Shown here piece by piece: positions 1 to 13,320 of a DNA stretch of 14,535 bases. The stretch covers positions 1 to 14,535 of IMG/VR virus record IMGVR_UViG_2534681705_000018. The stretch is one strand, 5' to 3'. Each line of letters starts with the position of its first letter. Within the stretch, counting starts at the first letter, position 1. Source of the stretch: a virus. Its lineage: Duplodnaviria; Heunggongvirae; Uroviricota; Caudoviricetes. The notes under the pieces are model-generated. The model was given only the letters and a program-made list of their open reading frames with translations. It did no database searches and was not told the origin of the DNA. The translations under genes were made by a program, and so were the position numbers.

Positions 1-318
1 ATAAATCTCACTCTCGTTTTTTTTGATATCAAAATCATCTGTTTCAAAATCTTCCTCGTACTCAAAATGATCAGCCATTTTTAACTCCTCTGGATAAATT
101 AAATCACAAATTTTTGTATTATAAATAACCGCATAAGCCAAATTATTTGAGATTAATAAAACATCACCAACTTCAATATCAACAAGACTTCTGTAACATG
201 TTTTACTAAATCCAATTACAAAATGAATGGACCAATATAATGATTTTTTGTCTAACACTGGAGCGTTTCCGTATTGGCAGACTGTGACTTTATCTAACCA
301 AAGATTCAATTCCCCTGT
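1..318 (-). pseudogene. Open frame continuing in the same frame directly after the TGA that ends ORF 319..684, running off the window start. Either the 3' part of a nonsense-interrupted gene or a separate gene using the ATG at 78.
   Basis: Hand translation after the stop at 319-321 gives TGELNLWLDKVTVCQYGNAPVLDKKSLYWSIHFVIGFSKTCYRSLVDIEVGDVLLISNNLAYAVIYNTKICDLIYPEELKMADHFEYEEDFETDDFDIKKNESEIY. That is 106 sense codons with no stop in very AT-rich DNA. The only ATG is at 78, preceded by GAGGAG (85-90). Confidence 0.4.
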
Positions 319-684
319 TCATATTCTTATTAGTGGTTGAGCAGGGCTCAATACTCCATCAAATACTTTACCTACGTGCAAACGATTATATTTTAGTTCA
401 GGATGCTTTAGATTTAACGGGGAACTGGATAAACTGAGCCATTCCCCTATTAACCTTTCCGTTTCTGGCATTAAAGCCATCCCAGCGAGCTCAGATGAAA
501 TTAAGGGAAATATTTCTCCAAGCAATACCCATCCAGACCAGCTGCCACTCTCTTCTGCTATCGGTAACCATTTAGCACTAAATTCGGGCATTAATAATGC
601 AACATCTTCGCCATTTTCTTTCCAATTTTGAAAAGTGGTTTCAAACGTATGAGTGTTTCGATTTACTTTCCTCAGACCGAACAT
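319..684 (-). CDS. Hypothetical protein (121 aa), possibly the N-terminal part of a gene disrupted by an in-frame TGA.
   Basis: ORF track. ATG start. Low-GC flank outside the island. No family recognised. Confidence 0.45.
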   Translation of the reverse strand: MFGLRKVNRNTHTFETTFQNWKENGEDVALLMPEFSAKWLPIAEESGSWSGWVLLGEIFPLISSELAGMALMPETERLIGEWLSLSSSPLNLKHPELKYNRLHVGKVFDGVLSPAQPLIRI

Positions 685-815
685 TAACTTTCATCCTTCT
701 GATCGTTTTCGAATTTGCTTTCATTTTCTTGCTCCTCATAAGGCTGATGTCGTTGTCCTTGTCGTTCATCTTGCTCAGTCAATACCCAACGTTGTGCTGT
801 AACTCATTATGAAAA

Positions 816-2426
816 CTATTTAATTCCCTCATCATTGATAAGGTTGGACATCTCTTTCAACATGAGAGTCATTGAAGCTTTCGACCAATTTAGCGGAATG
901 ATAGGGCTTGGCGCTTCATGCAAAGTTCCCGACTTGTGGATATAGTTATAGCTTTCGGGAAGTGCCATTTCAGGTACACTCCTGCCATTTGCACCAATCA
1001 TATTCTCGCCTGTTATTTGGGCCAATGATCTATTCATAAATTGCACTGAGTCATTCAAATACTCTTCCTTTCTTGATTCTTTATAAACAATTGCTGCTGA
1101 TTTTGCATACCATGAGTCAAAAAACCATTCTGCTTCTGTTGATGGAATGAAGCTCTTTTCTCTTTTCGCATGTGAATTTTGATCGGTATCGGTTTTAATA
1201 TCATTGAACCAAAAATTTGCCGACTGATAATTATCCTTCTCGTATCTTTTTATACCATACGGACCTGCTAGTTTTTTAACTATTTTTAGAACCTGCTCTT
1301 TTCTTCTGGTGTTTATCTTTGCAAGATTTGCAGGATAAATAACATTAAGTAAAGCCGCATCGGCTTCTCTGTAATGTTTATCTTTTTCCAGATAACCTGG
1401 GGATTCTCCCCCTAAATCAAGCTGTAACGTTATTCTTTCATAACCTTTATCTATGAGGTGGTTCAACCTCGTTGTTGAAAGAGGTTCATCCAGTTCATTG
1501 GCTTTAGCTTCGCGTAGTAAATCAGAGACAAAAACAGAGTCTTTCTTCGAGAGTAAGTTCGACAAACGTTCCAGTCCAGAGGTCACCAGTGCAACGGAAG
1601 ATGTGTTTAATCGGGCATCTTCTTCCCATGCTCCGGAATCTTCCATAACATAGAAATTGGCTTTATCCAGATAAGCAATCAGCAGCGCAACCGATTTTAA
1701 TCGGTCACCTTTTTGCCAATCTTCAGCGTTAATTGTATCAGTGTCGATTGCTTGTATAAGGAGATCAAGATAAAGACCTAACGCATCATTTTGTTTATGG
1801 TTCCACAGCTGCGGCTTGCCTTCTTCCTGCACATCTGCCATCACGGGGGAGTTGCTGTCAAATCGGATATGCACAACATTCATTTGCCCGGGAACTCCAT
1901 CCAGTCGTTTGGGGTTGCTAATGACGTCCTGCATTCGCTTAATCTGGTCGGGCGTAGACATATAATCCCACAGGGTGAGCAGAACCTTTTTTGCGGCTAC
2001 ACTATTTCCCTGATCTGATACTAATGCCATATAGCCCCATAAACTATCCCTCAGCCAGACAGCATCATAGTGGGTTTCTGCCGCTGTTTTGTCATCTTCG
2101 AAAGTAGAAGCAAGAATAAACGTTCCCCAGGGTTTCTCCGTCAACGTTAACTTTCGTGTGTTTTCTGTTAATGTTAGCAATCCTTGAATTTCGTCTTTGG
2201 TATAGTGGCTCTTTATTTCATTTTGTAATTTGGCTGAGTGAATCAAAAGACGATAATTAGGATACTTATCTGGATTTAACGATAAATAACTTTTATCTGT
2301 TGCTGCCCCCGTGGAATTAAGAATGTTAAATACAGATTCACTCGTCACTTCTGCCCCTGTCGCCTGGCATGTGCCGCACGAAAATATACCAGCGAGCAGA
2401 AGAGTTAATGCAGATTTCCCTTTCAT
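816..2426 (-). CDS. Secreted glycoside hydrolase family 15 (glucoamylase-like) protein.
   Basis: The ORF as drawn (816..2468) starts at a GTG. An internal start, MKGKSALTLLLAGIFSCGTCQA|TG (ATG at 2426), gives a classic signal peptide. GH15-like motifs are present: YDAVWLRDSLWGY and the catalytic-type GAWEED. From memory, a GH15-like gene or pseudogene (ygeQ) lies next to glyU in the E. coli ETT2 remnant. The gene was not recognised from its sequence, so no symbol is assigned. Confidence 0.7.
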   Translation of the reverse strand: MKGKSALTLLLAGIFSCGTCQATGAEVTSESVFNILNSTGAATDKSYLSLNPDKYPNYRLLIHSAKLQNEIKSHYTKDEIQGLLTLTENTRKLTLTEKPWGTFILASTFEDDKTAAETHYDAVWLRDSLWGYMALVSDQGNSVAAKKVLLTLWDYMSTPDQIKRMQDVISNPKRLDGVPGQMNVVHIRFDSNSPVMADVQEEGKPQLWNHKQNDALGLYLDLLIQAIDTDTINAEDWQKGDRLKSVALLIAYLDKANFYVMEDSGAWEEDARLNTSSVALVTSGLERLSNLLSKKDSVFVSDLLREAKANELDEPLSTTRLNHLIDKGYERITLQLDLGGESPGYLEKDKHYREADAALLNVIYPANLAKINTRRKEQVLKIVKKLAGPYGIKRYEKDNYQSANFWFNDIKTDTDQNSHAKREKSFIPSTEAEWFFDSWYAKSAAIVYKESRKEEYLNDSVQFMNRSLAQITGENMIGANGRSVPEMALPESYNYIHKSGTLHEAPSPIIPLNWSKASMTLMLKEMSNLINDEGIK

Positions 2427-2659
2427 AAAATATTCCATCAATCGTTTGTTAAAAGCGTAGATAACCACTTATTTAACAACTTGAAAATAAGGTGTTTTAC
2501 CTGGGTTGTTACAAAAGGATTGCATTGCGTAAACGCTTTTTATTTACAACAAAATGGGGAAGTATTACGGCGATTGCGAAAAGTCTGAAGCGATTGAATT
2601 AAGATAATATAGAAAATCAGATACAGCAAAAATGGCAGATTGATCAGGTGAAGATAAAT

Positions 2660-2676
2660 TGGAGCGGCGAAGGGAA
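2660..2676 (-). repeat. Putative attR core: a degenerate copy of a tRNA-Gly(CCC) 3' end.
   Basis: The plus strand reads TGGAGCGGCGAAGGGAA. Its reverse complement, TTCCCTTCGCCGCTCCA, matches the glyU 3' end as I recall it (TTCCCTTCGCCCGCTCCA) except for one missing C. The orientation fits a minus-strand tRNA lying just beyond the integrase start. Confidence 0.55.
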
Positions 2677-2826
2677 CAACACAACAAGCCACAAGACCAG
2701 TAATAAAGGCGCATTCGCGAGTTCTAAAATAAATTCTATACACATTTCTATACACATTTATCACTCGCTTGGGGATTACACATCCCCTGTTAACCGTGAT
2801 CAAGCTGGTGGATGATCACGGATAAA

Positions 2827-2850
2827 CCGATATGGGAATCCCCATATCGG
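2827..2850. repeat. Perfect 10-bp inverted repeat with a 4-nt spacer.
   Basis: CCGATATGGG aatc CCCATATCGG. Confidence 0.7.
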
Positions 2851-2855
2851 CATCG

Positions 2856-2894
2856 CGTAGTTAATCGTAGTGGCTACCGTAGTAGCCTCCGTAG
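2856..2894 (+). repeat. Four phased CGTAG(T) direct repeats; candidate recombinase or RDF arm-type sites.
   Basis: CGTAG starts at 2856, 2866, 2878 and 2890 (spacing 10, 12 and 12 bp), 180-235 bp from the putative att core. Confidence 0.5.
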
Positions 2895-2932
2895 TTGAGT
2901 AGCAGGATGTAACCTGCCAGGAAGGAAATGAT

Positions 2933-2968
2933 CGTGACTCGCCGTGACATGGCGTGATTAATCGTGAC
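2933..2968 (+). repeat. Four CGTGA(C/T) direct repeats spaced exactly 10 bp apart; candidate arm-type or bending-protein sites.
   Basis: atCGTGACtcgcCGTGACatggCGTGATtaatCGTGACacc. Copies start at 2933, 2943, 2953 and 2963. Confidence 0.55.
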
Positions 2969-2970
2969 AC

Positions 2971-3006
2971 CAAACAAAAATCCTTACCCGTAGGCTTAAT
3001 GTAAGG
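2971..3006 (-). terminator. Possible weak intrinsic terminator closing the last island transcription unit.
   Basis: The minus strand reads CCTTAC-13 nt-GTAAGG followed by ATTTTTGTTTG. The stem is only 6 bp. An alternative 7-bp hairpin (GTAAGGC/GCCTTAC, 3001-3023) overlaps it. Confidence 0.3.
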
Positions 3007-3035
3007 CTTGGCTGTAGCCTTACCGAACGCGCCGC

Positions 3036-3215
3036 TCACCGTCGCGGCCTGTCCGGTTTCCGCCACTGATACGGCCTCACATCATCATGCTGGTGGCGCT
3101 CCTGTTGCAGCACAACGGAAACAGGCGCTGAACACCTGTTAATTTTGCTTGCTGGTTGTTTGATTCCGGCAATGCTGCGGATCATCTCCAGCAAATCGGC
3201 TTCGGTGATGGTCAT
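3036..3215 (-). CDS. Small hypothetical protein (59 aa), below the ORF-track cutoff.
   Basis: Hand translation gives MTITEADLLEMIRSIAGIKQPASKINRCSAPVSVVLQQERHQHDDVRPYQWRKPDRPRR. AAGGTG lies 6 nt upstream of the ATG at 3215. The possible terminator follows. Confidence 0.35.
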   Translation of the reverse strand: MTITEADLLEMIRSIAGIKQPASKINRCSAPVSVVLQQERHQHDDVRPYQWRKPDRPRR

Positions 3216-3222
3216 GATTTAC

Positions 3223-3510
3223 ACCTTAGGAAATCTTAGGGGGCTGGTTGACACTTTCCGGCTTAAGACCTTAATAAATCTTAATATCGTAGGTTGACAC
3301 ACTTGACACTTTTTCGGGAAAAACCTTAACAAAACTTAACCATCCCTGGCATTTCTAAGCATGGCAACTTGACACTTTTCGCTATTTTTTCGGCTTTTTG
3401 ACGTGGTAAATCTGGCGAAAGGCCAGTAATGGCGTGGCTTACAGCGAGGTTGACACTTTTTCGCGTTCAGAGTGTAAAGTGTCAACCTGGCAAGCTGCTC
3501 AACTTGACAC
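3223..3510 (+). repeat. Composite repeat array; putative packaging-recognition (cosB/pac-like) region.
   Basis: Six direct TTGACAC copies start at 3248, 3294, 3303, 3369, 3450 and 3504 (extended form TTGACACTTTTTCG). There is one inverted copy (GTGTCAACC, 3479-3487) and one degenerate copy (TTGACGT, 3397). These interleave with three 18-mers of form ACCTTAnnAAAnCTTAnn at 3223, 3268 and 3323. The array starts 10 nt after the stop of the TerS-like gene. Confidence 0.6.
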
Positions 3511-3519
3511 TTTTTGAGG

Positions 3520-4047
3520 TCATTGATGGCCTGATTTTTCCCACTCAGCCAGGGCGTTTAGTCCGGCTTCACTCCAGTTATCCAGCTCATCGGGACAATC
3601 ACCTGCAACATAGCAGAGCTCACAACGCAGCATACGAATTGCCAGCCTGGCATTTTCCCGAAAATCATACTGCTCAAAGTAATATTGCCCAGCATAATCC
3701 TCAAGGCAGATAGCACCATCATCAAGAAATTGCACTTCACAGCATAATTCCCCGGCTGCATCCTGCACACGCTGCTGTATGTCATCGTCCGTTACTGGTG
3801 CAGGGATTTTACCGTCTCTGGCCTTAACTGCTTTCCAGAACTCGCCCCACGTCATTTCCAGCGTTCTCTCTGGCCACATTTCAGAAACGGGGTTTTTTCC
3901 CTGTGCTGGTGGGCTGTTCCGCTGCTCTGTCGCTTCCACATCAATTTTTTTGCCAGACATGATCACTTCGCCTTTCTCGATCCAGTCGTAAACTGTCTGG
4001 CGGCTTACGCCTTTGTGTTTGGCATATTCTGCCTTGCTCATCAGCAT
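3520..4047 (-). CDS. HTH protein resembling a small terminase subunit N-terminus; candidate TerS-like or Rpp-like packaging redirection factor.
   Basis: The N-terminus MSKAEYAKHKGVSRQTVYDWIEKGEV is a Nu1/TerS-style HTH. GGTGAG lies about 7 nt upstream of the ATG. The gene is 6 nt downstream of the preceding gene and directly abuts the repeat array. Confidence 0.55.
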   Translation of the reverse strand: MLMSKAEYAKHKGVSRQTVYDWIEKGEVIMSGKKIDVEATEQRNSPPAQGKNPVSEMWPERTLEMTWGEFWKAVKARDGKIPAPVTDDDIQQRVQDAAGELCCEVQFLDDGAICLEDYAGQYYFEQYDFRENARLAIRMLRCELCYVAGDCPDELDNWSEAGLNALAEWEKSGHQ

Positions 4048-4053
4048 TATGAC

Positions 4054-4725
4054 TCACCCTTCTTTTTCCAGTTGAGCCAGCCGCCCGGATATTTCTTCCA
4101 GTTTTTCCAGGGCTGGCTTGCAGGCCGCATCAATAACATCCCGGACCATTCCGGCAAGCTGCTCTTCTGCTGTCGGCGTTGTTACTTCCACACCCGATGG
4201 TTTCCCTCCCTTATCCCATACACCCAGCGGTACGAGGGCAACGTGATCGATAAGAAATGGCGTACCCTCAATGACAAAATTGTCCTCGCCCATTACATCA
4301 GGAACTTCTGCCCCACCGGACGCACCACAAAACACAACCGACGGGCTGGTGGATACCTCCCCCCGGGCTTTCTGGATGTAATCGATGATTTCCTGCCCGT
4401 AAATCCGGCATACGCCCCACACCTCGTCATCGCGAATATACGGCAACATAACGGTGCCAATAATGCGCGACCGTTCGCCCACGTCTTCAATGGTTTTGCC
4501 TTCGGGATGGTCGATAATGACGGGTACTCCGGCGCAACGTTCCAGGAACTGCGGATTGAGATAAGTTTGCGGTGAACGCCAGACAAATTCTTTTTCTTCG
4601 GCGCGGTAGGCCATTCCGGTTCCTGTGATACGCAGGTTAACCAGCCACATGTTGGAGAACTGATAAGGCGACGGTAGCTGACCGTCCCGAATCTGCTTCG
4701 CCGCCTCAATTTCTGTTAAAAGCAT
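4054..4725 (-). CDS. Phage prohead protease/scaffold-like protein (DUF2213/XkdF-like pattern).
   Basis: GVPVIIDHPEGKTIEDVGERSRIIGTVMLPYIRDDEVWGVCRIYGQEIIDYIQKARGEVSTSPSV resembles the His...Gly...Ser core pattern of HK97-type prohead proteases. The C-terminus is coiled-coil-like (LEKLEEISGRLAQLEKEG). Assignment is by eye only. Confidence 0.45.
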   Translation of the reverse strand: MLLTEIEAAKQIRDGQLPSPYQFSNMWLVNLRITGTGMAYRAEEKEFVWRSPQTYLNPQFLERCAGVPVIIDHPEGKTIEDVGERSRIIGTVMLPYIRDDEVWGVCRIYGQEIIDYIQKARGEVSTSPSVVFCGASGGAEVPDVMGEDNFVIEGTPFLIDHVALVPLGVWDKGGKPSGVEVTTPTAEEQLAGMVRDVIDAACKPALEKLEEISGRLAQLEKEG

Positions 4726-4749
4726 AATGTTATCCGGTTATAAGCAATA

Positions 4750-4773
4750 AGCCCCGCCAAATCCGGCAGGGCT
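4750..4773 (-). other. Intergenic GC-rich hairpin between the two morphogenesis-like genes.
   Basis: The minus strand reads AGCCCTGCC ggattt GGCGGGGCT: a 9-bp stem with one U-G pair, followed only by a weak U-tract (TATTGCTT). It could be a partial terminator or an mRNA stabiliser. Confidence 0.35.
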
Positions 4774-4789
4774 GAACTCAGCACGTTTT

Positions 4790-5368
4790 TCATGCCCCCG
4801 CGAGGCTTGCAGTGTTAATTTTGACCAGGCGACGGGGAGGGATTTTGAAGGCGTTCAGCCAGACGTTCGGATCGCCCTGATATTCAGTAATACGACGACC
4901 AGCTTCATCCATTCTTACGGTTTTACCCAAATGGCCCGGCGTGTTTTCCACGGCCCACTGAGCACTTTCCTGAGCAGCCTTGTAAATCTGATCTTCCAGC
5001 ACCGCCAGCGTTGCAGAATCTGAAACGGAACGAATATCCACATCACTGAATTTTTTAGCCAGCTTCTGTGCGCCAATTAATGCACGCTTGCGGTAATCCA
5101 TCGACTTTTCACCAGCAAACGGGGCCGGAGCTCGACGGCCCATATTGCTGTATGCGGAATCCGCTTTAGCCTGGGCTTCTGCCAGTGAGGATTCATCTTC
5201 GACTGACGCGACGATGTTTTGATTAGCGTTATCCTCTTTTATGAAATCCTGTGCGGGGATCGCATTCAGAATTTCGATAATCTCCTGCGGAGTGCTGCCC
5301 TGCGACTCTGACAGAGCGTTAACCACCTCCATCAGTTTTAATCGCAAATCTTCTTTGCTTGCTGGCAT
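4790..5368 (-). CDS. Hypothetical structural or scaffold-like protein (192 aa).
   Basis: The ORF-track start at 5377 is a GTG that sits inside the SD GAGGTGG. The likelier start is the ATG at 5368 (MPASKEDLRL...). The N-terminal half is acidic and helical. No family recognised. Confidence 0.6.
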   Translation of the reverse strand: MPASKEDLRLKLMEVVNALSESQGSTPQEIIEILNAIPAQDFIKEDNANQNIVASVEDESSLAEAQAKADSAYSNMGRRAPAPFAGEKSMDYRKRALIGAQKLAKKFSDVDIRSVSDSATLAVLEDQIYKAAQESAQWAVENTPGHLGKTVRMDEAGRRITEYQGDPNVWLNAFKIPPRRLVKINTASLAGA

Positions 5369-5407
5369 TTTTACCACCTCTCTTTTTTCACCAAAAAATC
5401 ACGACCA

Positions 5408-5581
5408 TCAGGCCGGACGTTCTACGGGATAAAGCGCCCGCTGCATTAAACGCCGGGCGACCTCATGAATGCTCGGAGCAATCCCCAGCGGAGAATTGCG
5501 GCGTTCCTCGTCCTGGATGCGCTGTAATGCTTCAATCTGATCACGAGCGAGTAAAACGGGTTTCACGCTGGCTTTTCTCAT
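5408..5581 (-). CDS. Ribbon-helix-helix (Arc/CopG-like) DNA-binding protein.
   Basis: MRKASVKPVLLARDQIEALQRIQDEE...SIHEVARRLMQRAL fits a beta-alpha-alpha RHH pattern. AGGAG lies 8 nt upstream of the ATG at 5581. Alternative starts are at 5587 and 5605. It is the first gene after the double terminator. Confidence 0.5.
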   Translation of the reverse strand: MRKASVKPVLLARDQIEALQRIQDEERRNSPLGIAPSIHEVARRLMQRALYPVERPA

Positions 5582-5705
5582 AGTCATATCTCCTGAACAA
5601 AACAATGATTATGATTGCACAAACTGAAATGACGATCTACATCGTTGCAATTTATGAAACGATAACGCATGATGATCGCGTTCTTCCCATTGACTTCAAT
5701 CACCT

Positions 5706-5745
5706 GAAAAACAAAGCCCGCAACACTTCTGGCTGCGGGCTTTTT
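5706..5745. terminator. Bidirectional intrinsic terminator.
   Basis: Stem GCCCGCA (5716-5722) / TGCGGGC (5734-5740) with an 11-nt loop. The tail is TTTTT on the plus strand and TTTGTTTTT on the minus strand. Confidence 0.65.
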
Positions 5746-5751
5746 ACTGGC

Positions 5752-5777
5752 ACAAAAAAGCCGGGAAAAATCCCGGC
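5752..5777 (-). terminator. Intrinsic terminator 5 nt after the PerC-like gene.
   Basis: The minus strand reads GCCGGGA tttt TCCCGGC followed by TTTTTTG. Confidence 0.75.
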
Positions 5778-5782
5778 CTCCG

Positions 5783-6070
5783 TCACTGACTGCAATTTTT
5801 CGATCCAGGGTATTTCCTGAATGCCTTACCATTGGGCTGATGTAATCCCATCCCGGCATGTGCCCGGCTGATGGTTTCGCGCATCTCCCCGAAATTATCC
5901 TGCCGTGCTGGTGGGCGTGCTGCCTTGCGGATACATTCCGCGCGACGTTTTGCCGCCTGTTCCCGTGCCTTGTCATCATTCGCCAGCATGATGACCTCAG
6001 CCCACCGCGCCGCCGCTCTCCGGTACAGACCACGCGCTTCCAGTGCTTCCGCTTTGCTGTCGTGAATCAT
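5783..6070 (-). CDS. PerC-family transcriptional regulator-like protein.
   Basis: AEALEARGLYRRAAARWAEVIMLANDDKAREQAAKRRAECIRKA matches the PerC/Pch core (LE..G.YRRAA.RW...RR..C). The start overlaps the upstream stop (ATGA). Confidence 0.7.
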   Translation of the reverse strand: MIHDSKAEALEARGLYRRAAARWAEVIMLANDDKAREQAAKRRAECIRKAARPPARQDNFGEMRETISRAHAGMGLHQPNGKAFRKYPGSKNCSQ

Positions 6071-6597
6071 GCGCCTGTTTTCTCCCTGGCTGCCCGGCGC
6101 TGACGTTTGCGCTTCTCATTCAGCGCTACCAGCCGCGTTTCTGCGTCCTGTTGTTCCTGTGGTGTCACCTCGCCGCACGGCTGGCCTTTCAGGTCGTAGC
6201 GTACCCCACCAGCCATTAAGGCGCGGTAATAGCGCGGACACTGCGCATAAGATGCCAGCGTCGCACGTAATGCCCCTGGCCCGAATGCCAGCCCCCTGAC
6301 GGCGAGATCCTGCATCAGGTCGTCGAATATCCCCACCTTAAGCGGCTTCGGTGCTTCCCGGCTGAATAATTCAGGCCACAACTCAGTGAGGCGGTTAACG
6401 CGCCTGCGGTTTTTGCGCTGGCGCTTGGTCATATGCCGCCACGGTGTCGCCCCTGTGGGCTTCTGCTGCGCTTTCTGGTTACCGGGCATCACTTTATGCG
6501 CCGACGTGGTTTTATCCTGCTCCTGTGCCGCCTGCGTCGTTTTCTGCGGCGTGCCATAAATGCCTTTCGGTTTTCTGTTAATGGTCAGCTTAGTCAT
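6067..6597 (-). CDS. FinO/ProQ-domain RNA-binding protein with a basic, Q/K-rich N-terminal extension.
   Basis: LTELWPELFSREAPKPLKVGIFDDLMQDL...LRATLASYAQCPRYYRALMAGGVRYDLKGQPCGEVTPQE parallels the ProQ N-terminal (FinO) domain (FP.CF....PLKIGIFQDL...LR.AL..Y....YL......R.DL.G.PCGE). The start is chosen at 6597 because of the ATGACTAA overlap; an alternative ATG is at 6609. Confidence 0.8.
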   Translation of the reverse strand: MTKLTINRKPKGIYGTPQKTTQAAQEQDKTTSAHKVMPGNQKAQQKPTGATPWRHMTKRQRKNRRRVNRLTELWPELFSREAPKPLKVGIFDDLMQDLAVRGLAFGPGALRATLASYAQCPRYYRALMAGGVRYDLKGQPCGEVTPQEQQDAETRLVALNEKRKRQRRAAREKTGA

Positions 6598-6937
6598 GCT
6601 TTGCCCCATCGTTTTTACTGATTATTTCATGCCCGGAACTTTCATCTACCGGATACCACGCAAATGATCCAGGTTCATCAGAAAGAATGAATTTTGTGTT
6701 TGGCAAATACATGCATTCGTAAAAACCATCTTCCTGATGATACGGTGCCATTCCATACTCACCAGTAAGAATCGGTAATATTTCAGAATAAATTTCTGAA
6801 TCACCAGAATAAAACACATCACAAATCGCCCATGCTGCAATCGGACTATACCAGTCGTTGCCATTATCATTCCTGAATTTTGCCCACCAACCCTGAACCG
6901 CTGGCGAAATATTTTTGGGTATAGCTTCAAGAAACAT
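6590..6937 (-). CDS. Orphan hypothetical protein (115 aa, acidic, Trp/Tyr-rich) in an AT-rich segment immediately after the origin.
   Basis: AAGGGGG lies 4 nt upstream of the ATG. Hand-counted GC for 6661-6720 is 21/60, against 39/60 for 6121-6180 in the next gene. No family recognised. Confidence 0.6.
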   Translation of the reverse strand: MFLEAIPKNISPAVQGWWAKFRNDNGNDWYSPIAAWAICDVFYSGDSEIYSEILPILTGEYGMAPYHQEDGFYECMYLPNTKFILSDEPGSFAWYPVDESSGHEIISKNDGAKHD

Positions 6938-7010
6938 ACAACCCCCTTTGCAACTCTATTTCTATAATTTCGTGATAAAAATTCCAATTATTCACACTAT
7001 TCCATTTTGA

Positions 7011-7290
7011 TTGTGAACAGTCGTGAATAGTTAGTGAACAGTTTTTTAATAACTGTTCACTATGTTTTTTAGTTTAAAATCATATGGTTATTTTGTTTCA
7101 GTGAACAGTTGAACAGTTACCCCCTATAGAATTTAATTTGCAGTGAAAATGATTCACTGTTACAAGTTACAATGCGTTTTAAAAGTTTTAGCCGAAACTG
7201 TTCACGGCGTTCATTTCGTCGATGAATCCAGTAATGACGCAGCTTTTAGAGGTGAACACTACTGTTCACCACTGTTCACCACTGTTCACT
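7011..7290. repeat. Iteron-type origin of replication.
   Basis: GTGAACAG is at 7013, 7034 and 7101. Its complement CTGTTCAC is at 7053, 7198, 7262, 7272 and 7282; the last three form the tandem (ACTGTTCACC)x3. One-mismatch variants are at 7023, 7109 and 7252. The copies flank AT-rich stretches and sit directly downstream of the primase-helicase gene, overlapping its stop. Confidence 0.75.
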
Positions 7291-9058
7291 TTTCATGGAT
7301 TTTTGGCACAGCGGGTAACCATTCATTAGCACTGTCAGCCAGCTCCATGTTGTAGCGCATTCCGACATTGGTCTTTGCCTTCTTATACTCAGCCCCATAT
7401 TCTTTCATCACTTTTGGGAAATCTTTGCCAAAATTAGTTAGATTTAATGGCTTATCGAAACCATAAGCATCCATATATGCAAGATATGCATGGTAAAGAT
7501 AAATTCGAGGGGCTCTTGGATATATATTCAGGTTTCCCATGAACATTCCTACAGCTTCACCAAGTTCGACAATATGGTTACAAAAAGCATATAGCGGATC
7601 AGTATGGCGTTTTACTTCCATTGCTTCTTCACCATCACGTTGCTCGAGCAGTAATGTTCTTGCTTTTTCGGGATCTGAAAAATTTACCAACAGCCTACGG
7701 ACTATTACCGGAATTTCCGCTGCAATTTTTTTGGGTAAACATGTGTCCTTGTTTTCTTCCGCTATCGGATTATTGAACTGAAAAATAACCCTACGGCGTG
7801 AAATACCTCCCGCTCTTTCTGTAAAAACCATCGGTTTATTATTTGTTATCAAAACAACTGAGCGTAAGACAGTGGTGTATCTTTTTTCATATTTCGGGTT
7901 AATTTGCAGAGGATCCCCACCTGTTATAGCTTTAATACCATTACCTTCACCAAAATATTTAGGTTGGTCCGGTAAAATAATCAGACTTTTACCAACTAGT
8001 TGCTCACGTCCACCAGCATCATCTAACGCTTTCATATCACTGCCTGCGGTGTTCTGCTCACCCGCCAACATTCTGGCAATTTGAGTAAACATACTTTTAC
8101 CACTTCCACCTTCGCCAGTTGCTTCAATGAATAATTGCCAGTCGTAGCGATTAGCCAAAACCATAAACAGAGCAGCACATATCCGCTTCATCTTTGATGA
8201 ATCGTATCCTGCTGCATGTGACAGCCAACGATGAAAATGGGGCGCATGGTCATGAATATTTTCACCAGGCGCAGGTGGCGTATAATAAATTCCATTATGC
8301 GAAGTGATCCAGTGCTCTGGTGAATGAGGTAAAAATCTACCACTTGTTATGTCATAAACTCCATTTTCAAAAGGTATTATGGTGTCACTCTGTTCTCTCA
8401 TTACGGGTACAGATATTTTTAAAGCATCAACCGCATTACTAATTGCCCGCTTACTGAAATTTGTCTTGTTTTTTTCGTAAATTGATACCATTTTACGACT
8501 CAACTCCATATCAGATATTTTTTCCCACACTCCAGAACAGTATGCATAAGCAAAATTGTTACCAGGGTGAACAGCTATTTCCTCAAAGCATTCAGCCAAA
8601 AGTGAAGCTCGCTCGTTATCCGCCATTCTGGAAAGAGAGATTTTGTGTTTTTTCTCAGTCCTTCCTGACAGAATATCCCCGCGCTCTGCCTGTTCGCGGA
8701 TCCGTTGCAGGTAATCGCGCCAGTTCTCCGGTTCCCGGTCGGTGATGCCTTTGTATAATTTCGCCTCCTGTACGCCAGCCAGCGCCAGCTTTTCAGCGAT
8801 AGCATTGATCTGGATTGGTTCGATCTCCCCCGCGAGATAGACACGCGCAAAGCGGCGTTTCTCGTCAATAATGCGGATATTCGCCAGGTCTGCCAGTTGC
8901 TTTGGCCCCAGGTAAACAGGTGGTACGTTATCGCCGTGTTTTCGTCCTTCGCTTTCAATCCAGTGTTGAGCATGGGAGTAAGCGTCCGTCCCGGCAAAAA
9001 TGATTACCTCGGTGAATTTATCCTTCGGCTGATATTTTAAATTCGGTGCGTTTTTCAC
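7286..9058 (-). CDS. P4/D5-family primase-helicase (replication initiator, SF3 helicase).
   Basis: Walker A is GEGGSGKS and Walker B-like is SLIILPD. A D5_N-like region precedes them (IPFENGVYDITSGRFLPHSPEHW). The start is a GTG overlapping the upstream TGA (GTGA), with GGAGGT 5 nt upstream. The first internal Met is only at about codon 154. Confidence 0.85.
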   Translation of the reverse strand: MKNAPNLKYQPKDKFTEVIIFAGTDAYSHAQHWIESEGRKHGDNVPPVYLGPKQLADLANIRIIDEKRRFARVYLAGEIEPIQINAIAEKLALAGVQEAKLYKGITDREPENWRDYLQRIREQAERGDILSGRTEKKHKISLSRMADNERASLLAECFEEIAVHPGNNFAYAYCSGVWEKISDMELSRKMVSIYEKNKTNFSKRAISNAVDALKISVPVMREQSDTIIPFENGVYDITSGRFLPHSPEHWITSHNGIYYTPPAPGENIHDHAPHFHRWLSHAAGYDSSKMKRICAALFMVLANRYDWQLFIEATGEGGSGKSMFTQIARMLAGEQNTAGSDMKALDDAGGREQLVGKSLIILPDQPKYFGEGNGIKAITGGDPLQINPKYEKRYTTVLRSVVLITNNKPMVFTERAGGISRRRVIFQFNNPIAEENKDTCLPKKIAAEIPVIVRRLLVNFSDPEKARTLLLEQRDGEEAMEVKRHTDPLYAFCNHIVELGEAVGMFMGNLNIYPRAPRIYLYHAYLAYMDAYGFDKPLNLTNFGKDFPKVMKEYGAEYKKAKTNVGMRYNMELADSANEWLPAVPKIHEK

Positions 9059-9345
9059 TTCTTACCTCCCGCAACCAACATTGCCCGGATTTTTTTAATA
9101 TTCGTGGCTGCACGTCTCGCCACCGCCTGTTGTTTGTTTTCCACCAGAATAAAATCACGCTCAAACTGACGGCGCGGCATTACGCAGTCATATTCGTAAG
9201 CCTCACGGCGGTAGGTGATATTGCCTGGCGTAACGTGACGAATAACCACTCGTCCCCCACGTCTGGTGTCGCGGTAAATATCTCCGTGTCTGATTTCAGG
9301 CCGAGCGGGGCCGCTGGCAGTAAAGCCAGAATTTTTCTTTTTCAT
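9055..9345 (-). CDS. Small basic hypothetical protein (96 aa); possibly a DUF4222-type prophage protein.
   Basis: ORF track. Tightly packed in the operon, with its stop overlapping the primase start. The family assignment is from memory only. Confidence 0.55.
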   Translation of the reverse strand: MKKKNSGFTASGPARPEIRHGDIYRDTRRGGRVVIRHVTPGNITYRREAYEYDCVMPRRQFERDFILVENKQQAVARRAATNIKKIRAMLVAGGKK

Positions 9346-9349
9346 GGTT

Positions 9350-9550
9350 TTATTTTCCTGTCAGCAGTTCCGGTTTTATTTCCGCACGAATACAGAGTTC
9401 AGAAAAAAATTCAGGAGAACCAACAATCTCATTACTTTTCAGTCGGCATTGTGATTTCACTTTTCCTTTATCCAGGTAAACCAGTATGCGTCCGGTGAAA
9501 TCATCTGGCGCACTCAGGGTAATTGTCATTGTTGCTTGCTGATTATCCAT
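9350..9550 (-). CDS. Small hypothetical protein (66 aa) carrying one copy of the FTG repeat domain.
   Basis: The start overlaps the upstream stop (ATGGATAA). It contains DDFTGRILVYLDKGKVKSQCRLKSNEIVGSPEFFSELCIRAEI. Confidence 0.6.
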   Translation of the reverse strand: MDNQQATMTITLSAPDDFTGRILVYLDKGKVKSQCRLKSNEIVGSPEFFSELCIRAEIKPELLTGK

Positions 9551-9908
9551 GATTCACCCCCTGAATAACCTGATAACCGCAACTGGTCAGCAATTCGATA
9601 AATTCCGGCAATGTGCCGAAACAGTAATCATCACGCAGACGTTCGCGGGATACTTCAACGCCGTTTTCGTAGTGACTCACCATGCGTCCGGTAAAATGCA
9701 GATCATCATCGTGATGGCACGTTAACGGCTTAATCAGTCGCGCACGTTCTGCCAGTTCCAGCAATGCTTCAACGCTTCCGGCAATTGCACCATCCGGCAG
9801 GTTGTAATTACGCACTATGCGCCCGTTCTCCACATGGACCAGTAGCTGCCCGGTAAATTTCTCGTCAAACTGAATGCGGTTAAGGTCGGTAAGTGACAGG
9901 TTAATCAT
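9543..9908 (-). CDS. Hypothetical protein (121 aa) with two copies of the FTG repeat domain.
   Basis: The start overlaps the Icd-like stop (ATGATTAA). The two internal copies are EKFTGQLLVHVENGRIVRNYNLPDGAIAGSVEALLELAERA and LHFTGRMVSHYENGVEVSRERLRDDYCFGTLPEFIELLTSC. Confidence 0.65.
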   Translation of the reverse strand: MINLSLTDLNRIQFDEKFTGQLLVHVENGRIVRNYNLPDGAIAGSVEALLELAERARLIKPLTCHHDDDLHFTGRMVSHYENGVEVSRERLRDDYCFGTLPEFIELLTSCGYQVIQGVNHG

Positions 9909-10104
9909 GGCGTACCTCCTGACGAATACGGGCGGCGAATACCATCACGCAGCCATCAGGAGATTGCTGGCGTGCTTCCTGTTCGCTGGTGGCCTCGATG
10001 TGAATCACGCGCGGTTGTGCCGTGCTCAGAGCGATAAAACGCCAGATGTATTTATTCAGGTTGTGCGAGTCCCGCCCTTGCGGGTGTGTGGTATGATTTC
10101 TCAT
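9901..10104 (-). CDS. Host cell division inhibitor Icd-like protein (67 aa).
   Basis: MRNHTTHPQGRDSHNLNKYIWRFIALSTAQPRVIHIEATSEQEARQQSPDGCVMVFAARIRQEVRHD. The pattern IEATSE.EAR....FAARI recalls Icd-like proteins of P4-type elements. It has its own SD (GAGG, 5 nt upstream of the ATG at 10104). It lies in frame at the 3' end of the 402-codon ORF. Confidence 0.6.
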   Translation of the reverse strand: MRNHTTHPQGRDSHNLNKYIWRFIALSTAQPRVIHIEATSEQEARQQSPDGCVMVFAARIRQEVRHD

Positions 10105-11109
10105 AGCTACCTCGATAATCTTGCTATCGTTGGTGGTTAGAAGCTCTGCGAGTGGTAACGACACTTGCGGGGCTTTGCCTTTAAGGTGCAAGTCACCTTT
10201 GAGGGTTATGCTACTTTTAGGTGACTTGCACTTCAAGCCTTTTTTTATTTTTTTTTCTACGTATACTGAACGCCACCTAACAGTAAGGAGGCCAGTAATG
10301 CCAACGGGTACAACCAACAACAAATCACAACAAAAAACGGCTAGAATCCCTCTAGAAGTTTTAAGCGAAATGAATTTGGTCAAAGAGGAAAACGAAACAG
10401 ACGCGCAGTTTATCGTTACAGCCATGCGTGGCGAGATCAAACGCCGCCAGCGCCGCAAGGCCAAAGAACAGGAGTAACCATCACCAGCGCCGTGGTGTGA
10501 GGAACTACGGTGCATCGTTTTACAGGGCAGCGCCATGACCAACAAAGAATCAACCAAAACACCATCACCAACTCGTAAGAGACGACGCAAAAATATAGCG
10601 CATGAACATGAATCAGAAAGATTCGCACCTTGTTCGTTTGCTCTTGAGAAATTCCTTAAAGAGCACAGGAAAAAGCTCTCGTTGCAAACCTTGGAACGAA
10701 CCAAATCTGACTGATCACATTGCCCACCAGCCGCAAATGTGGCATTGTTGGTGATGCGTTCAAGTATGTAGCTTTTCCACTGGCGGCTCTCTGCGGTCGC
10801 CTTTGTTTTATCCAGAACGAAATCAGACATCAGATTGATCAGCACCTGGCGACCTGACAAAATCGCATCAGTCGCGCCACCAGCAAAATTTTTTGCTTTC
10901 CGGACAGCGTGGCCAACGATATTTTGCAGCAAAATATTCTGCATTTCTGGCGTGCTGTGGCGACGGTGATCAGCGCCTTCACATTGAACGAACTTGTCGC
11001 TAAAATTCACCCACATAGCAAACATCGCGGTGCTGTAGGTAATTCGTTCACAAAGGCGCTCCGGCAACGGGGCGCTTTCTCTTTTTGTAACGGTCAGAGC
11101 GTTACACAT
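9901..11109 (-). CDS. 402-codon ORF as drawn, probably composite. Only the first ~140 codons (about 10690-11109) look like a genuine protein.
   Basis: The ATG at 11109 overlaps the antirepressor stop (ATGTGTAA), which suggests translational coupling. The N-terminal part looks protein-like. The middle ~200 codons are Cys/Ser/Leu/Arg-rich and cross the operator hairpin, a T-run and the antisense of the SD-bearing RHH gene. The last 67 codons are the Icd-like gene. Confidence 0.35.
   Translation of the reverse strand: MCNALTVTKRESAPLPERLCERITYSTAMFAMWVNFSDKFVQCEGADHRRHSTPEMQNILLQNIVGHAVRKAKNFAGGATDAILSGRQVLINLMSDFVLDKTKATAESRQWKSYILERITNNATFAAGGQCDQSDLVRSKVCNESFFLCSLRNFSRANEQGANLSDSCSCAIFLRRLLRVGDGVLVDSLLVMALPCKTMHRSSSHHGAGDGYSCSLALRRWRRLISPRMAVTINCASVSFSSLTKFISLKTSRGILAVFCCDLLLVVPVGITGLLTVRWRSVYVEKKIKKGLKCKSPKSSITLKGDLHLKGKAPQVSLPLAELLTTNDSKIIEVAMRNHTTHPQGRDSHNLNKYIWRFIALSTAQPRVIHIEATSEQEARQQSPDGCVMVFAARIRQEVRHD
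10185..10232. promoter_or_regulatory. Paired palindromic operators forming a 13-bp perfect inverted repeat in the divergent control region.
   Basis: GTGCAAGTCACCT (10186-10198) and AGGTGACTTGCAC (10219-10231). Each arm is itself GGTG-N5-CAC(C). The centres are about 34 bp apart. The repeat lies between the Icd-like start (10104, minus) and the RHH start (10298, plus). Confidence 0.55.
10298..10477 (+). CDS. Ribbon-helix-helix protein (59 aa), transcribed divergently from the replication operon.
   Basis: A consensus SD, TAAGGAGG, lies 7 nt upstream of the ATG at 10298. KTARIPLEVLSEMNLVKEENETDAQFIVTAMRGEI fits the RHH pattern and is followed by a basic tail. TATACT lies about 30 nt upstream. 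Confidence 0.55.
   Translation: MPTGTTNNKSQQKTARIPLEVLSEMNLVKEENETDAQFIVTAMRGEIKRRQRRKAKEQE
10535..10714 (+). CDS. Possible small basic protein (59 aa), below the ORF-track cutoff.
   Basis: Hand translation gives MTNKESTKTPSPTRKRRRKNIAHEHESERFAPCSFALEKFLKEHRKKLSLQTLERTKSD. It is in the same plus frame as the RHH gene, separated by a single TAA. The SD is weak. It is antisense to the long minus ORF. Confidence 0.3.
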   Translation: MTNKESTKTPSPTRKRRRKNIAHEHESERFAPCSFALEKFLKEHRKKLSLQTLERTKSD

Positions 11110-11950
11110 GGCTGTTTTCCTCCATGCGACGGGCTAACCAACGCTGCGAAAGACGAATTAATTCAGCCTTCCGCTGGTGGTAGTCCTGGCCTAACTCAAT
11201 CAGCGTGATATTGCTCTGCTCAAGGTAAGAAAGGTGCTCAAGCTGCAACGTGCTCATGTGGTCGCGTGGTTCGCCTGTAATGCCGTTCGCCAGTGCCCAC
11301 TGTTTTGCAGTCATGCCACCCAGCACGATACGCGCCAGCATGTTCGCTTCCGTGGTGTAGTGGTGCTGGAGTGTGTTTTTACCCAGTTCAGCCCGGTACG
11401 CCTCCAGCGCGGCACACATTGGCTTAAAGTAGCTGGCAACTGTGATACGGGCTTTCAGTTCCCGGCGTAACGCTGCGGAACGCACTGGCGCTACCTTGTG
11501 TAGCTCCTCCTCGCATTTGATAAAGTACTGGCGAACGGCGCGGCCCTGTTCGGTACGTTCGACCATCGCCAGTTCTTTCGCCATGTTCGTGGAGATCAAA
11601 TAGTCTTCACTGCGACGATCACCGCCGCGCTTTGTTGTCCAATCAAAATCAAACTGTTCAATATTTACACTTTGGTTCCCCCGTTTCGGGGAATCAAAGT
11701 ACAAATTTTCTACAACTTCAAAATCCACGCCATTTTTAAATCCGTACTCATCAATACGTCCTTTAATCCAGGTAGTGAAATCACGGCCTACCCCGAGCGC
11801 CTTATGCAACGCTCTGGCGCTAACAATATTGGTTTCACGCCCGCCAATAACGCCGGAAATAACCGGGATAATTTCGCCAAAATTTTGCAGATTCTGGTTT
11901 TCAGGCCGAACGAAGCCCTGCCCCTGTACGGGCGTTTTTCGCAGTTTCAT
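11102..11950 (-). CDS. Phage antirepressor, AntA/AntB N-terminal domain family.
   Basis: NIVSARALHKALGVGRDFTTWIKGRIDEYGFKNGVDFEVV and DYLISTNMAKELAMVERTEQGRAVRQYFIKCEE are typical AntA-domain signatures. AGGAG lies 5 nt upstream of the ATG. Confidence 0.75.
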   Translation of the reverse strand: MKLRKTPVQGQGFVRPENQNLQNFGEIIPVISGVIGGRETNIVSARALHKALGVGRDFTTWIKGRIDEYGFKNGVDFEVVENLYFDSPKRGNQSVNIEQFDFDWTTKRGGDRRSEDYLISTNMAKELAMVERTEQGRAVRQYFIKCEEELHKVAPVRSAALRRELKARITVASYFKPMCAALEAYRAELGKNTLQHHYTTEANMLARIVLGGMTAKQWALANGITGEPRDHMSTLQLEHLSYLEQSNITLIELGQDYHQRKAELIRLSQRWLARRMEENSHV

Positions 11951-12028
11951 AAAAACTCCTGCTATCGAATTAAGTTACTTTTATTTGCTGGTGGATAGCT
12001 GGGGGCTTCTGGCCCCGTAGCCATTTAA

Positions 12029-12226
12029 TCAGGTAGCTGTTCCGCGTGATTCAGCAATACGCTGATTAATCCACTCGTCAATTTCACTCTCAACGAAAGC
12101 AATCGCTCGCGAGCCAATTTTAACTGATGCAGGAAATTTACCTTGCCCCATAAGGCGATAAATCCATGCCTTGCTATATCCAGTTCTACGCTGAACTTCC
12201 GTTAAACGAATAAGCGTATTTGACAT
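12029..12226 (-). CDS. alpA: AlpA-family (CP4-57 regulatory protein-type) HTH regulator or excisionase.
   Basis: LIRLTEVQRRTGYSKAWIYRLMGQGKFPASVKIGSRAIAFVESEIDEWI is the canonical Phage_AlpA pattern. GAGG lies 8 nt upstream of the ATG. Confidence 0.9.
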   Translation of the reverse strand: MSNTLIRLTEVQRRTGYSKAWIYRLMGQGKFPASVKIGSRAIAFVESEIDEWINQRIAESRGTAT

Positions 12227-12328
12227 ATATTTACCTCATAACGTCTACTCAATTTGACGAGGTAATCATGGCACAGAAATAACGAATATTTTCATACCCT
12301 CAGGCCTAATGGTAATCGGGAATATTTT

Positions 12329-12441
12329 TACCCTAAGGGTAATAGTAAAATTGATGGGAAAGCATACAAAAATACCCTAAGGGTGAGGTCTGATTACCCT
12401 TAGGGTGAGACGCGAACAAAACATGAGATACCACTAGGGTA
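12329..12441. promoter_or_regulatory. Array of four 13-bp palindromes upstream of alpA: operators and/or an RNA terminator hairpin.
   Basis: TACCCTAAGGGTA (12329-12341), TACCCTAAGGGTG (12373-12385), TACCCTTAGGGTG (12395-12407) and TACCACTAGGGTA (12429-12441). A half-site, TACCCT, is at 12295. On the minus-strand transcript, copies 3 and 2 can pair (11-bp stem, 11-nt loop) and are followed by ATTTTTGT. Confidence 0.6.
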
Positions 12442-12446
12442 AGGCT

Positions 12447-13193: not shown

Positions 13194-13320
13194 ACGCACA
13201 CCTCGGCGTCCTCTGTAGTGGTGGCTGTGCCAGCCCGCAGAGGTGTACGGGTTTTCAGGAGCGACCCTAGACACAGCCTTTTCTTAATCGCTCAAAGTCT
13301 ACTACTGTATACTCAACCAG

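Follow-up and report, generated by a model that had tools for sequence, protein, structure and literature searches.

Two satellite genes correspond to separate parts of one phage head protein

The 14,535-nt stretch of viral DNA analyzed here (IMG/VR record IMGVR_UViG_2534681705_000018, positions 1–14,535; hereafter the window) carries a satellite island with a short minus-strand cassette, which encodes proteins of 57, 192 and 223 amino acids (aa) and contains a GC-rich hairpin between the last two genes. Our sequence comparisons indicate that the 192-aa and 223-aa genes together are a derivative of a phage head protease–scaffold protein that has been split and reordered, so that its C-terminal part comes first, and that has lost its internal spacer. 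When either satellite protein was searched with tblastn against 50,697 phage records, 14 records matched, and these were the same records and the same gene in each of them for both queries. By BLASTP, the 223-aa protein aligned end to end with residues 1–226 of a 430-aa protein of phage Rac-SA53 (53% identity), and residues 61–189 of the 192-aa protein aligned with residues 295–423 of that same protein (65% identity). Because the two proteins match different parts of one phage protein, we read the satellite copy as split, reordered and without the linker. A single PHROG, phrog_6216, covers both satellite proteins, the part corresponding to the 192-aa protein being positions 409–545. In the phage protein, the two parts are separated by a Lys/Glu/Ala-rich stretch of ∼70 residues that is missing from the satellite.

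The phage homologues are 430–540 aa long; in Rac-SA53-, Chronis- and PB1-type phages, their gene has portal/MuF before it and the major capsid gene after it. The gene order in Rac-SA53 is small terminase subunit (TerS), large terminase subunit (TerL), portal, minor head gene, 430-aa gene, 205-aa gene and major capsid gene; Klebsiella phage Chronis and Pseudomonas phage PB1 show the same order, and the RefSeq name of the PB1 protein is head maturation protease. Portal and capsid neighbors were present only for the phage homologues, and the 223-aa satellite gene does not lie within a head module. An exhaustive HMMER search returned 795 clusters (at 50% identity) related to the 223-aa protein. 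Among the best 150 of these, nearly all members were 300–1000 aa long, and the intact stand-alone form of ∼225 aa made up one cluster, which argues that the split is a rare, derived state specific to satellites. We also considered a tandem duplication with an overlapping helix as the origin of the reordered pair. It was not supported (hhalign probability 0.7%), and local alignments of residues 1–62 of the 192-aa protein with the post-protease helix fell on the same spot without being significant (their scores were reached by 97 and 54 of 500 shuffles).

A genuine NUDIX domain, which the satellite proteins lack, forms the N-terminus of many phage versions of the protein. Klebsiella phage Chronis gp4 (locus L002, 3599–5212) is an example, as are many metagenomic homologues. 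The sequence architecture of these proteins suggests that a NUDIX enzyme is probably delivered into the phage head together with the protease–scaffold protein. The NUDIX domain of the phage homologues is also the source of a database name: the 192-aa protein is widely labeled 'NUDIX hydrolase' and the 223-aa protein 'TolA', neither of which fits, and both names are corrected by our analysis. Similarly, a PDB profile search with both proteins returned only NUDIX matches, which trace back to the N-terminal domain that the aligned phage homologues carry.

The 223-aa protein is predicted to have a prohead protease fold

The 223-aa gene (4725–4054, minus strand) encodes a protein that matched PF09979 over residues 39–168 with 27.8 bits (cutoff 22); the Rac-SA53 and Chronis homologues also passed this cutoff. 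PF09979 was formerly called DUF2213 and appears as Pa193_gp24 in precomputed Pfam hits. An AlphaFold2 model based on 35 sequences (predicted local distance difference test (pLDDT) score of 86.6) showed a β-rich core followed by one 37-residue helix, that is, a prohead protease (assemblin-fold) domain at residues ∼1–175 and a long C-terminal helix at residues 186–222. The predicted core has the assemblin-type β-barrel of the class that includes T4 gp21, HK97 gp4 and herpesvirus assemblin. In the 35 sequences, which include all stand-alone satellite forms, H73 and S127 were invariant, and S125, D160 and H161 were nearly so. The resulting spacing, a His and a Ser 54 residues apart and a second His 34 residues further on, presumably resembles that of assemblins. 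A preliminary description of this DNA, made from the sequence alone, had suggested a prohead-protease-like core with a helical tail and a catalytic His and Ser; the predicted fold and the PF09979 match agree with the former, and the invariant H73 and S127 are candidates for the latter. Taken as a model-based assignment, the 223-aa protein is a prohead-protease-fold protein that keeps plausible candidate catalytic residues, and this supports the view of PF09979 as a prohead protease domain. Structure and profile searches thus placed the pair in a virion-morphogenesis family and not, as would have contradicted the preliminary reading, in non-virion families.

The phage relatives of this protein include gp24 of Pa193, a PB1-like Pseudomonas phage, which was found in virions by cryo-EM and mass spectrometry (PMC11456595). 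Residues 286–326 of gp24 form a helix-turn-helix pentamer inside the five-fold vertices, and the authors described it as a putative scaffolding protein (PMC11456595).

The 192-aa protein combines a new N-terminus with a conserved C-terminal end

The 192-aa gene occupies positions 5368–4790 (minus strand); the length of 195 aa given in the list of open reading frames (ORFs) reflects an upstream GTG start. Its product was predicted to be mostly helical (AlphaFold2 pLDDT 79), and no fold match was found for the predicted structure. Residues 1–70 are acidic (isoelectric point (pI) 4.1) and residues 71–192 basic (pI 9.8), so that its earlier characterization as an acidic helical protein was right about the helices but applies to the charge of residues 1–70 only. 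Within this acidic region, residues 1–60 are a satellite-specific addition, new relative to the phage protein. The C-terminal end of the protein was the best-conserved stretch between satellite and helper, with 32 of 38 residues identical in a hand count of the Rac-SA53 alignment, and the sole part conserved at the DNA level (a 104-nt match, 86% identical). We therefore regard this end as a candidate capsid-docking region, docking itself being presumed.

The cassette looks like a separate transcription unit with an internal hairpin

All relevant genes of the window lie on the minus strand. The cassette begins with the 57-aa gene (5581–5408), continues with the 192-aa gene, the hairpin and the 223-aa gene, and is followed by a gene for a 175-aa protein with a helix-turn-helix (HTH) motif (4047–3520), which starts 6 nt past the stop codon of the 223-aa gene. 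The same four genes were called by PGAP in a 99%-identical relative, including the same ATG start of the 57-aa gene, and the coordinates and gene sizes of the preliminary description were correct.

The first cassette gene encodes a basic protein (pI 10.7), whose homologues also lead the cassette in other satellites (65–67% identity in Klebsiella and Pantoea, 32% in locus L008). It had been called a ribbon-helix-helix regulator. The strand-helix-helix pattern of its sequence and its basic pI are compatible with that fold, but no match was found in Pfam (E-values up to 0.1), PHROGs or NCBIfam, and we consider it possibly a ribbon-helix-helix DNA binder.

Upstream of the cassette, two terminator-like hairpins with T-runs directly follow perC on the minus strand (5713–5780): one, found in a hairpin scan, has a 12-bp stem followed by GTTTTT (5743–5713), and the other, read from the sequence, pairs GCCGGG with CCCGGC before T6 (about 5777–5754). 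They are followed by a weak σ70-like promoter candidate (TCGTCA, 16 nt, CATAAT; 5635–5608, minus strand) that agrees with the consensus at 9 of 12 positions; the number of such sites in the region was not above the expectation from shuffled sequences, and this one is a candidate only. Given the two terminators and the weak promoter-like site, the cassette looks like a separate transcription unit, apart from the upstream ProQ and PerC genes, in line with the separately terminated operon that had been proposed.

The spacer of 64 nt between the 192-aa and 223-aa genes contains a hairpin of 10 bp (7 of them G–C) with a loop of 4 nt (4773–4750, minus strand). The intergenic region folded with −26.7 kcal/mol (z-score −3.2), and none of 200 shuffled sequences folded as well, so the hairpin noted previously at this place is real. 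A GC-rich hairpin was present directly 3′ of the stop codon of the ∼190-aa gene in all seven satellite loci examined, with differing stem sequences; the one in Klebsiella carries a U7 tail. As the hairpin is kept in position but varies in sequence, it is likely to be a leaky terminator or an RNA 3′-end stabilizer that sets the ratio of the two proteins. In either role, it would raise the amount of the upstream, scaffold-like product above that of the protease. Phage heads, too, usually contain scaffold in excess over protease.

The cassette is conserved in satellites of six genera

We found the cassette (a gene of 57–66 aa, a gene of ∼190 aa, the hairpin and a gene of ∼225 aa) intact in eight loci from six genera, namely Escherichia, Salmonella, Citrobacter, Enterobacter, Klebsiella and Pantoea. 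Besides additional E. coli strains, the hosts were Klebsiella aerogenes, Pantoea agglomerans, Salmonella enterica, Citrobacter and Enterobacter kobei, and a metagenomic contig also carried the cassette. Across these loci, both larger ORFs showed 45–98% amino acid identity, and in the comparison of the window with Salmonella, the sole pair with unsaturated synonymous sites, the 192-aa gene had a dN/dS of 0.18 and the 223-aa gene one of 0.14. These values point to a conserved functional unit under purifying selection. No capsid or portal gene stood beside the cassette in any of the eight loci.

The islands around the cassette were more variable. Three replicase types were represented (D5 primase, DUF927 or AAA_25), and the genes 3′ of the cassette differed as well: either the 175-aa HTH gene, or an Sf6-type TerS (PF20901) together with a phrog_370 TerS, or a 205-aa gene with a gene for a 687-aa SLT-domain protein, or a tail fiber gene with its assembly gene. 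Helper-like late genes followed the cassette in loci L008 (8455–10216), L011 (9680–12425) and L015 (39589–42310), where they encode a tail fiber (gp37/Gp53-like) and a Caudo_TAP assembly protein, or a 205-aa protein and an SLT-domain protein of ∼680 aa. The SLT-domain protein of the sister satellites had a partial PHROG match to tape-measure proteins. We found no homology between the 205-aa gene of the sister satellites and rac44 of Rac-SA53, nor between the 185-aa and 222-aa genes of the Klebsiella locus L010 and the cassette.

Rac-SA53-like phages are the likely helpers

In Pantoea agglomerans (locus L004, 1–12460), a satellite with the cassette lies inside terL of a Rac-SA53-like prophage. 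Directly after this satellite come the last 111 TerL codons, whose product is 80% identical to residues 332–442 of Rac-SA53 TerL, and then genes for a portal, a minor head protein, a 438-aa DUF2213 protein, a 208-aa protein and a 342-aa capsid protein. As the C-terminal codons of TerL resume right after the satellite, we conclude that it inserted into terL. The satellite proteins showed 55% (223-aa homologue) and 63% (C-terminal part of the 192-aa homologue) identity to the protein of the resident phage. Given these values, the Pantoea copies are best described as long-diverged derivatives and not as fresh captures.

A survey of 5426 complete E. coli genomes detected the full cassette in 34 and the Rac-SA53-type portal-to-capsid segment in 90 of them. 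Both occurred together in at least 16 genomes compared with 0.56 expected (hypergeometric P ∼1e-20, uncorrected for clonality). From the embedding and the co-occurrence, Rac-SA53-like phages are likely the helpers of these satellites. Their genomes of 45–52 kb are ∼4 times as long as the island, a ratio of the same order as for P2/P4 and 80α/SaPI1.

Several further features of these phages and their hosts stood out. The Rac-SA53 record and the STEC719 prophage (loci L001 and L015) contain genes for LT-IIa enterotoxin and a subtilase-type AB5 toxin beside the lysis and terminase genes. Close relatives of the window island share their host with a Rac-SA53-type prophage in E. coli A17 and in STEC719; in the latter strain, satellite and rac-site prophage are ∼6 kb apart, at separate sites. 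Livestock strains of enterotoxigenic E. coli (ETEC) and Shiga toxin-producing E. coli (STEC) were enriched among the cassette-bearing genomes. The portal gene of these E. coli prophages (DUF1073/Phage_portal_3) bears the PGAP name 'anti-CBASS protein Acb1 family protein', which looks like a naming artefact.

A gene in the position of TerS is followed by a repeat array

The 175-aa protein encoded downstream of the cassette is acidic and has an N-terminal HTH, and its residues 1–42 matched phrog_57 (E-value 4e-7). We found no Pfam terminase domain, no phage match by tblastn and no PDB match for it. Its family consists of hypothetical proteins of ∼170 aa across Enterobacterales, and none of 104 homologues had a terminase domain. 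A role as a true TerS was therefore rejected, as there was neither a terminase domain nor a phage homologue and the protein is unrelated to the Sf6-type and phrog_370 TerS proteins of the sister satellites. What remains of the earlier 'TerS-like' label is the match of the ∼42 N-terminal HTH residues to phrog_57, and we describe the protein as a positional analogue of TerS and a candidate packaging-specificity or DNA-recognition factor. Rpp-type packaging redirection was likewise rejected, since the 175-aa protein had no PDB match to RppC and no credible ORF of 144–153 aa was present on the island.

Immediately downstream of the 175-aa gene, six exact TTGACACTTT decamers occur within 266 bp (3248–3513), five in one orientation and one inverted. 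With up to one mismatch, the array comprised 7 matches compared with 1.34 expected, and none of 200 shuffles reached 7. Homologues of the 175-aa gene in loci L006, L011 and L015 are followed by the same TTGACACTTT array, which satellites with an Sf6-type TerS lack. This distribution suggests a pac-like candidate binding array (or an operator) for the 175-aa protein; alternatively, the decamers could be integrase arm sites. In two Klebsiella pneumoniae loci (L009 and L010), 175-aa homologues end satellites that are embedded in the late regions of E217/PB1-type prophages. In L010, the homologue is followed by a truncated Major_capside gene, suggesting insertion in the capsid gene.

The island has the gene content of a PICI/HES-type satellite

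The island spans about positions 2824–14535 (∼11.7 kb) of the window, with the boundary near 2823 set by comparison with E. coli genomes. It is shorter than the window because the window starts with ∼2823 bases of ordinary E. coli chromosome: positions 1–2823 occurred in 5278 of the 5426 complete E. coli genomes and contain remnants of the E. coli type III secretion system 2 (ETT2), namely a truncated YscQ/EpaO-type type III secretion gene (319–684) and the GH15-family gene ygeQ (816–2468). Short inverted repeats lie at the island boundary (2790–2825 and 2827–2850). At the far end, the island encodes a tyrosine integrase (14535–13321, minus strand), followed by an int-alpA RNA (Rfam RF02996, scoring 47 bits with a gathering cutoff of 35.8; 13277–13210) between the integrase gene and the adjacent ORF. 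Further minus-strand genes encode an AlpA regulator (12226–12029), a D5/primase-type replicase (9058–7286), ProQ/FinO (6609–6067) and PerC (6070–5783). An AntA/Bro-type (Ant) protein and small Icd-like and DUF4222 genes are also encoded. A listed ORF of 402 aa (9901–11109) is probably not real as a whole: its family match (phrog_6196, 'transcriptional repressor') was limited to the last ∼82 codons, a relative has a 121-aa Icd-like protein annotated within this interval, and the opposite strand carries a YlcI/YnfO-like gene (10121–10477).

When the plausible ORFs of the island were scanned with Pfam and PHROGs, none matched a major capsid, portal, large terminase or tail family, as the preliminary description had held. 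With an integrase and AlpA, its own primase-type replicon, a length of ∼11.7 kb, a late zone with candidate packaging genes and no full set of virion genes, the island has the features expected of a Gram-negative phage-inducible chromosomal island (PICI) or helper-embedded satellite (HES). Judged by its gene content (int, AlpA, int-alpA RNA, Ant, D5 primase, ProQ and PerC), it is a PICI/HES-type satellite without structural genes. The window island itself is not helper-embedded, being bordered by the core ETT2 region, and a relative is located at tRNA-Thr.

Proposed role of the cassette and alternative explanations

We propose that the cassette serves to exploit the helper and descends from the helper's head protease–scaffold gene, providing an alternative scaffold and a protease that would cause size redirection of, or interference with, the helper's capsids; we put the probability of this reading at roughly 0.5. 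In Rac-SA53-like phages and, more distantly, in Chronis- and PB1-like head modules, the helper-type polypeptide runs from an assemblin-fold prohead protease through a coiled helix and a K/E/A-rich spacer of ∼70 residues to a C-terminal domain. Capsid-site competition, protease activity, stoichiometry control and a capsid-size effect, as we infer them, could act together in the following way. During late growth of the helper, the 192-aa protein, encoded promoter-proximally and ahead of the leaky hairpin, would be made in excess and, as a shortened alternative internal scaffold, would compete through its conserved C-terminal region for the helper's docking site on the capsid protein or the procapsid interior. 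The 223-aa protein, made in smaller amounts, might supply the maturation protease to the altered procapsids, or it might cleave or titrate the helper scaffold via the shared helix. The outcome would be procapsids that are fit for the ∼12-kb island or useless to the 45–52-kb helper, and the adjacent HTH gene and repeat array may direct packaging. A shorter alternative scaffold is proposed for the 192-aa protein because CpmB, encoded by pathogenicity islands of Staphylococcus aureus (SaPIs), likewise shares the C-terminal motif of a helper scaffold, that of 80α: it occupies the same capsid-protein site and shifts the curvature of the shell from T=7 to T=4 (PMC6893505). An action of the pair on the helper's procapsid had been suggested before, and the homology to a head protein and the likely helpers found here favor it, but they do not support size redirection over interference or the reverse.

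Several observations weigh against this proposal. The capsid-bound segment of Pa193 gp24 (286–326) could not be mapped onto either satellite protein via PB1 gp22, which was alignable over the protease domain only (21–25% identity), and the stand-alone protease lacks the C-terminal domain expected to target procapsids. Behind the hairpin, the U-tract is poor in most loci, so that a role as terminator is uncertain. The co-occurrence statistic ignores clonal relatedness, with many of the genomes being porcine ETEC from a single project, and, in the 60 of 90 records that were listed, no Rac-SA53-type module appeared for about half of the cassette-bearing genomes. Furthermore, EcCICFT073, another PICI of E. 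coli, has homologues of capsid and decoration proteins for which no phenotype was detected, and it uses full-size capsids (PMC6092414, PMC6739421), a precedent by which morphogenesis homologues do not guarantee size redirection.

A more specific version of the proposal, which we advance only tentatively, is that the N-terminal helices of the 192-aa protein and the C-terminal helix of the 223-aa protein re-associate. The pair would then form a spacer-less protease–scaffold on which Rac-SA53-type capsid protein builds small shells for the ∼12-kb island, the hairpin and the gene order setting scaffold high and protease low. If this were true, no earlier case would exist of a satellite redirecting capsid size with a split and reordered copy of the helper's own protease–scaffold, or of a satellite-encoded active prohead protease that matures capsids made of helper protein.

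The same homology would also be expected if the fragments were purely dominant-negative and poisoned assembly or maturation of the helper, through uncoupling of protease and scaffold or through premature cleavage, with no small functional capsids being made and satellite multimers filling full-size heads. Separating a protease from its targeting domain is a classic route to a poison subunit, and E. coli PICIs of the EcCICFT073 type do interfere without a change in capsid size (PMC6739421, PMC6092414). However, one fragment would suffice as a poison, and the retention of two genes, their order, the hairpin and the candidate catalytic residues over six genera suggests a constructive function; a satellite moreover needs working helper capsids and would itself be harmed by strong poisoning. 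We consider interference alone unlikely for these reasons. Improbable, in our view, is an explanation by complementation, in which a protease and scaffold of its own would lessen the satellite's dependence on the helper, widen its helper range or cover for delayed late genes, as a step towards capsid-forming PICIs (cf-PICIs). Satellites of this group do capture helper late genes (TerS, tail fiber and assembly protein, SLT-domain protein), which Tommasini et al. present as a general trait (bioRxiv 10.1101/2022.07.18.500453), and the Pantoea copy interrupts the terL of its helper. The helper already has the full-length protein beside its capsid gene, however, which leaves nothing to complement, and the satellite copies are rearranged and spacer-less instead of faithful, with no capsid or portal gene accompanying them in any of the 8 loci.

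A role outside the virion appears very improbable. Helper-like fragments could conceivably serve as decoys or sensors; the pair, perhaps with the 57-aa protein, would then be a regulator or would sense or counteract rival phages that have this head type. Yet PADLOC returned 0 matches for the cassette and flanking proteins, and the cassette lies in the late/packaging zone, in tight linkage with packaging genes and 6 nt from the next gene, rather than at the island end, where the variable accessory zone is. Finally, the two ORFs could be the decaying remnant of a captured helper late gene with no present function, given that such satellites have been documented to capture late genes of their helpers (bioRxiv 10.1101/2022.07.18.500453) and that a split could in principle be rearrangement damage. 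This is hardly credible: both ORFs have stayed intact across 8 loci and 6 genera (45–98% identity), dN/dS is 0.14–0.18, the same derived architecture is found everywhere, the catalytic candidates are invariant and both the hairpin and the upstream small gene are conserved, so that conservation effectively refutes it.

Relation to known satellites and to phage protease–scaffold proteins

It is already known that satellites tamper with helper capsids and that PICI/HES elements capture helper late genes. A close functional parallel to our proposal is CpmB of SaPI1 and SaPIbov1, which, like the 192-aa protein, is largely helical, satellite-encoded and shares the C-terminal region of the helper scaffold; the 192-aa and 223-aa genes also always travel together, as do cpmA and cpmB. 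We found no relationship to CpmB in sequence or fold. The statement in the preliminary description that the folds differ from those of Sid/Psu and Cpm is true for the protease, but the logic of the 192-aa protein comes close to that of CpmB. The direct homologues of the two halves are the protease–scaffold fusions of the P2 gpO type or with PF09979 (Pa193 gp24, PB1 gp22 and the 430-aa protein of Rac-SA53), with the same Pfam family and protease fold, and a protease-linked scaffold is an arrangement known from P2 (PMC6893505). Unlike these fusions, the satellite version consists of two genes with the C-terminal part first, has neither the K/E/A spacer nor a NUDIX domain, carries a new N-terminus of 60 residues and stands on an island without a capsid gene.

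Diverged homologues of helper head proteins are also carried by other satellites, such as SaPIbov5 (Ccm), EcCICFT073 (c1499/c1500) and PmCI172, and Ccm is a head-protein homologue that alters the helper capsid (PMC6092414, PMC6893505). Those proteins are homologues of major capsid or decoration proteins, whereas the cassette encodes a homologue of a protease–scaffold. EcCICFT073 also differs in using Rpp with cos packaging, and no Rpp relative was detected on the window island. With P4 Sid/Psu and TcaP of the phage-inducible chromosomal island-like elements (PLEs), the pair would share the aim of a small shell made from helper capsid protein. TcaP and P4 Sid/Psu are external scaffold cages that are not known to be related to any helper protein. 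In contrast to these cages, the present pair is of an internal type and helper-derived, and Pfam and PHROG scans gave no similarity to Sid/Psu for any cassette protein.

At the level of the whole island, the order of zones (integration, Bro/Ant, replication, late) is that of HES and Gram-negative PICIs, as described in bioRxiv 10.1101/2022.07.18.500453, and the Pantoea member embedded in terL of its presumed helper has the HES configuration of Tommasini, Mageeney and Williams. The parts of their study considered here describe the capture of late-gene clusters in general and do not describe a split protease–scaffold cassette. A satellite-encoded prohead protease is known from cf-PICIs (bioRxiv 10.1101/2022.09.08.507074); these have the whole head set of capsid, portal, connectors and terminases, unlike the window island with its protease and scaffold-derived genes only. 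Within the searchable literature collection, we found no paper linking DUF2213/PF09979 or a protease–scaffold pair to PICIs or other satellites, and the split-and-reordered architecture with its conserved hairpin appears to be undescribed.

Known routes by which satellites remodel helper capsids are an external cage (P4 Sid, PLE TcaP), a scaffold mimic (SaPI CpmB) and a capsid homologue (Ccm). The route used by Gram-negative PICIs of pac-type helpers is largely unknown, as in the Pasteurella case (PMC6092414). The cassette offers a concrete candidate, widespread in Enterobacterales and with a named putative type of helper. If our proposal is true, it would represent a new evolutionary route, in which a helper gene is split and reordered so that its domains work against the helper or re-tune it.

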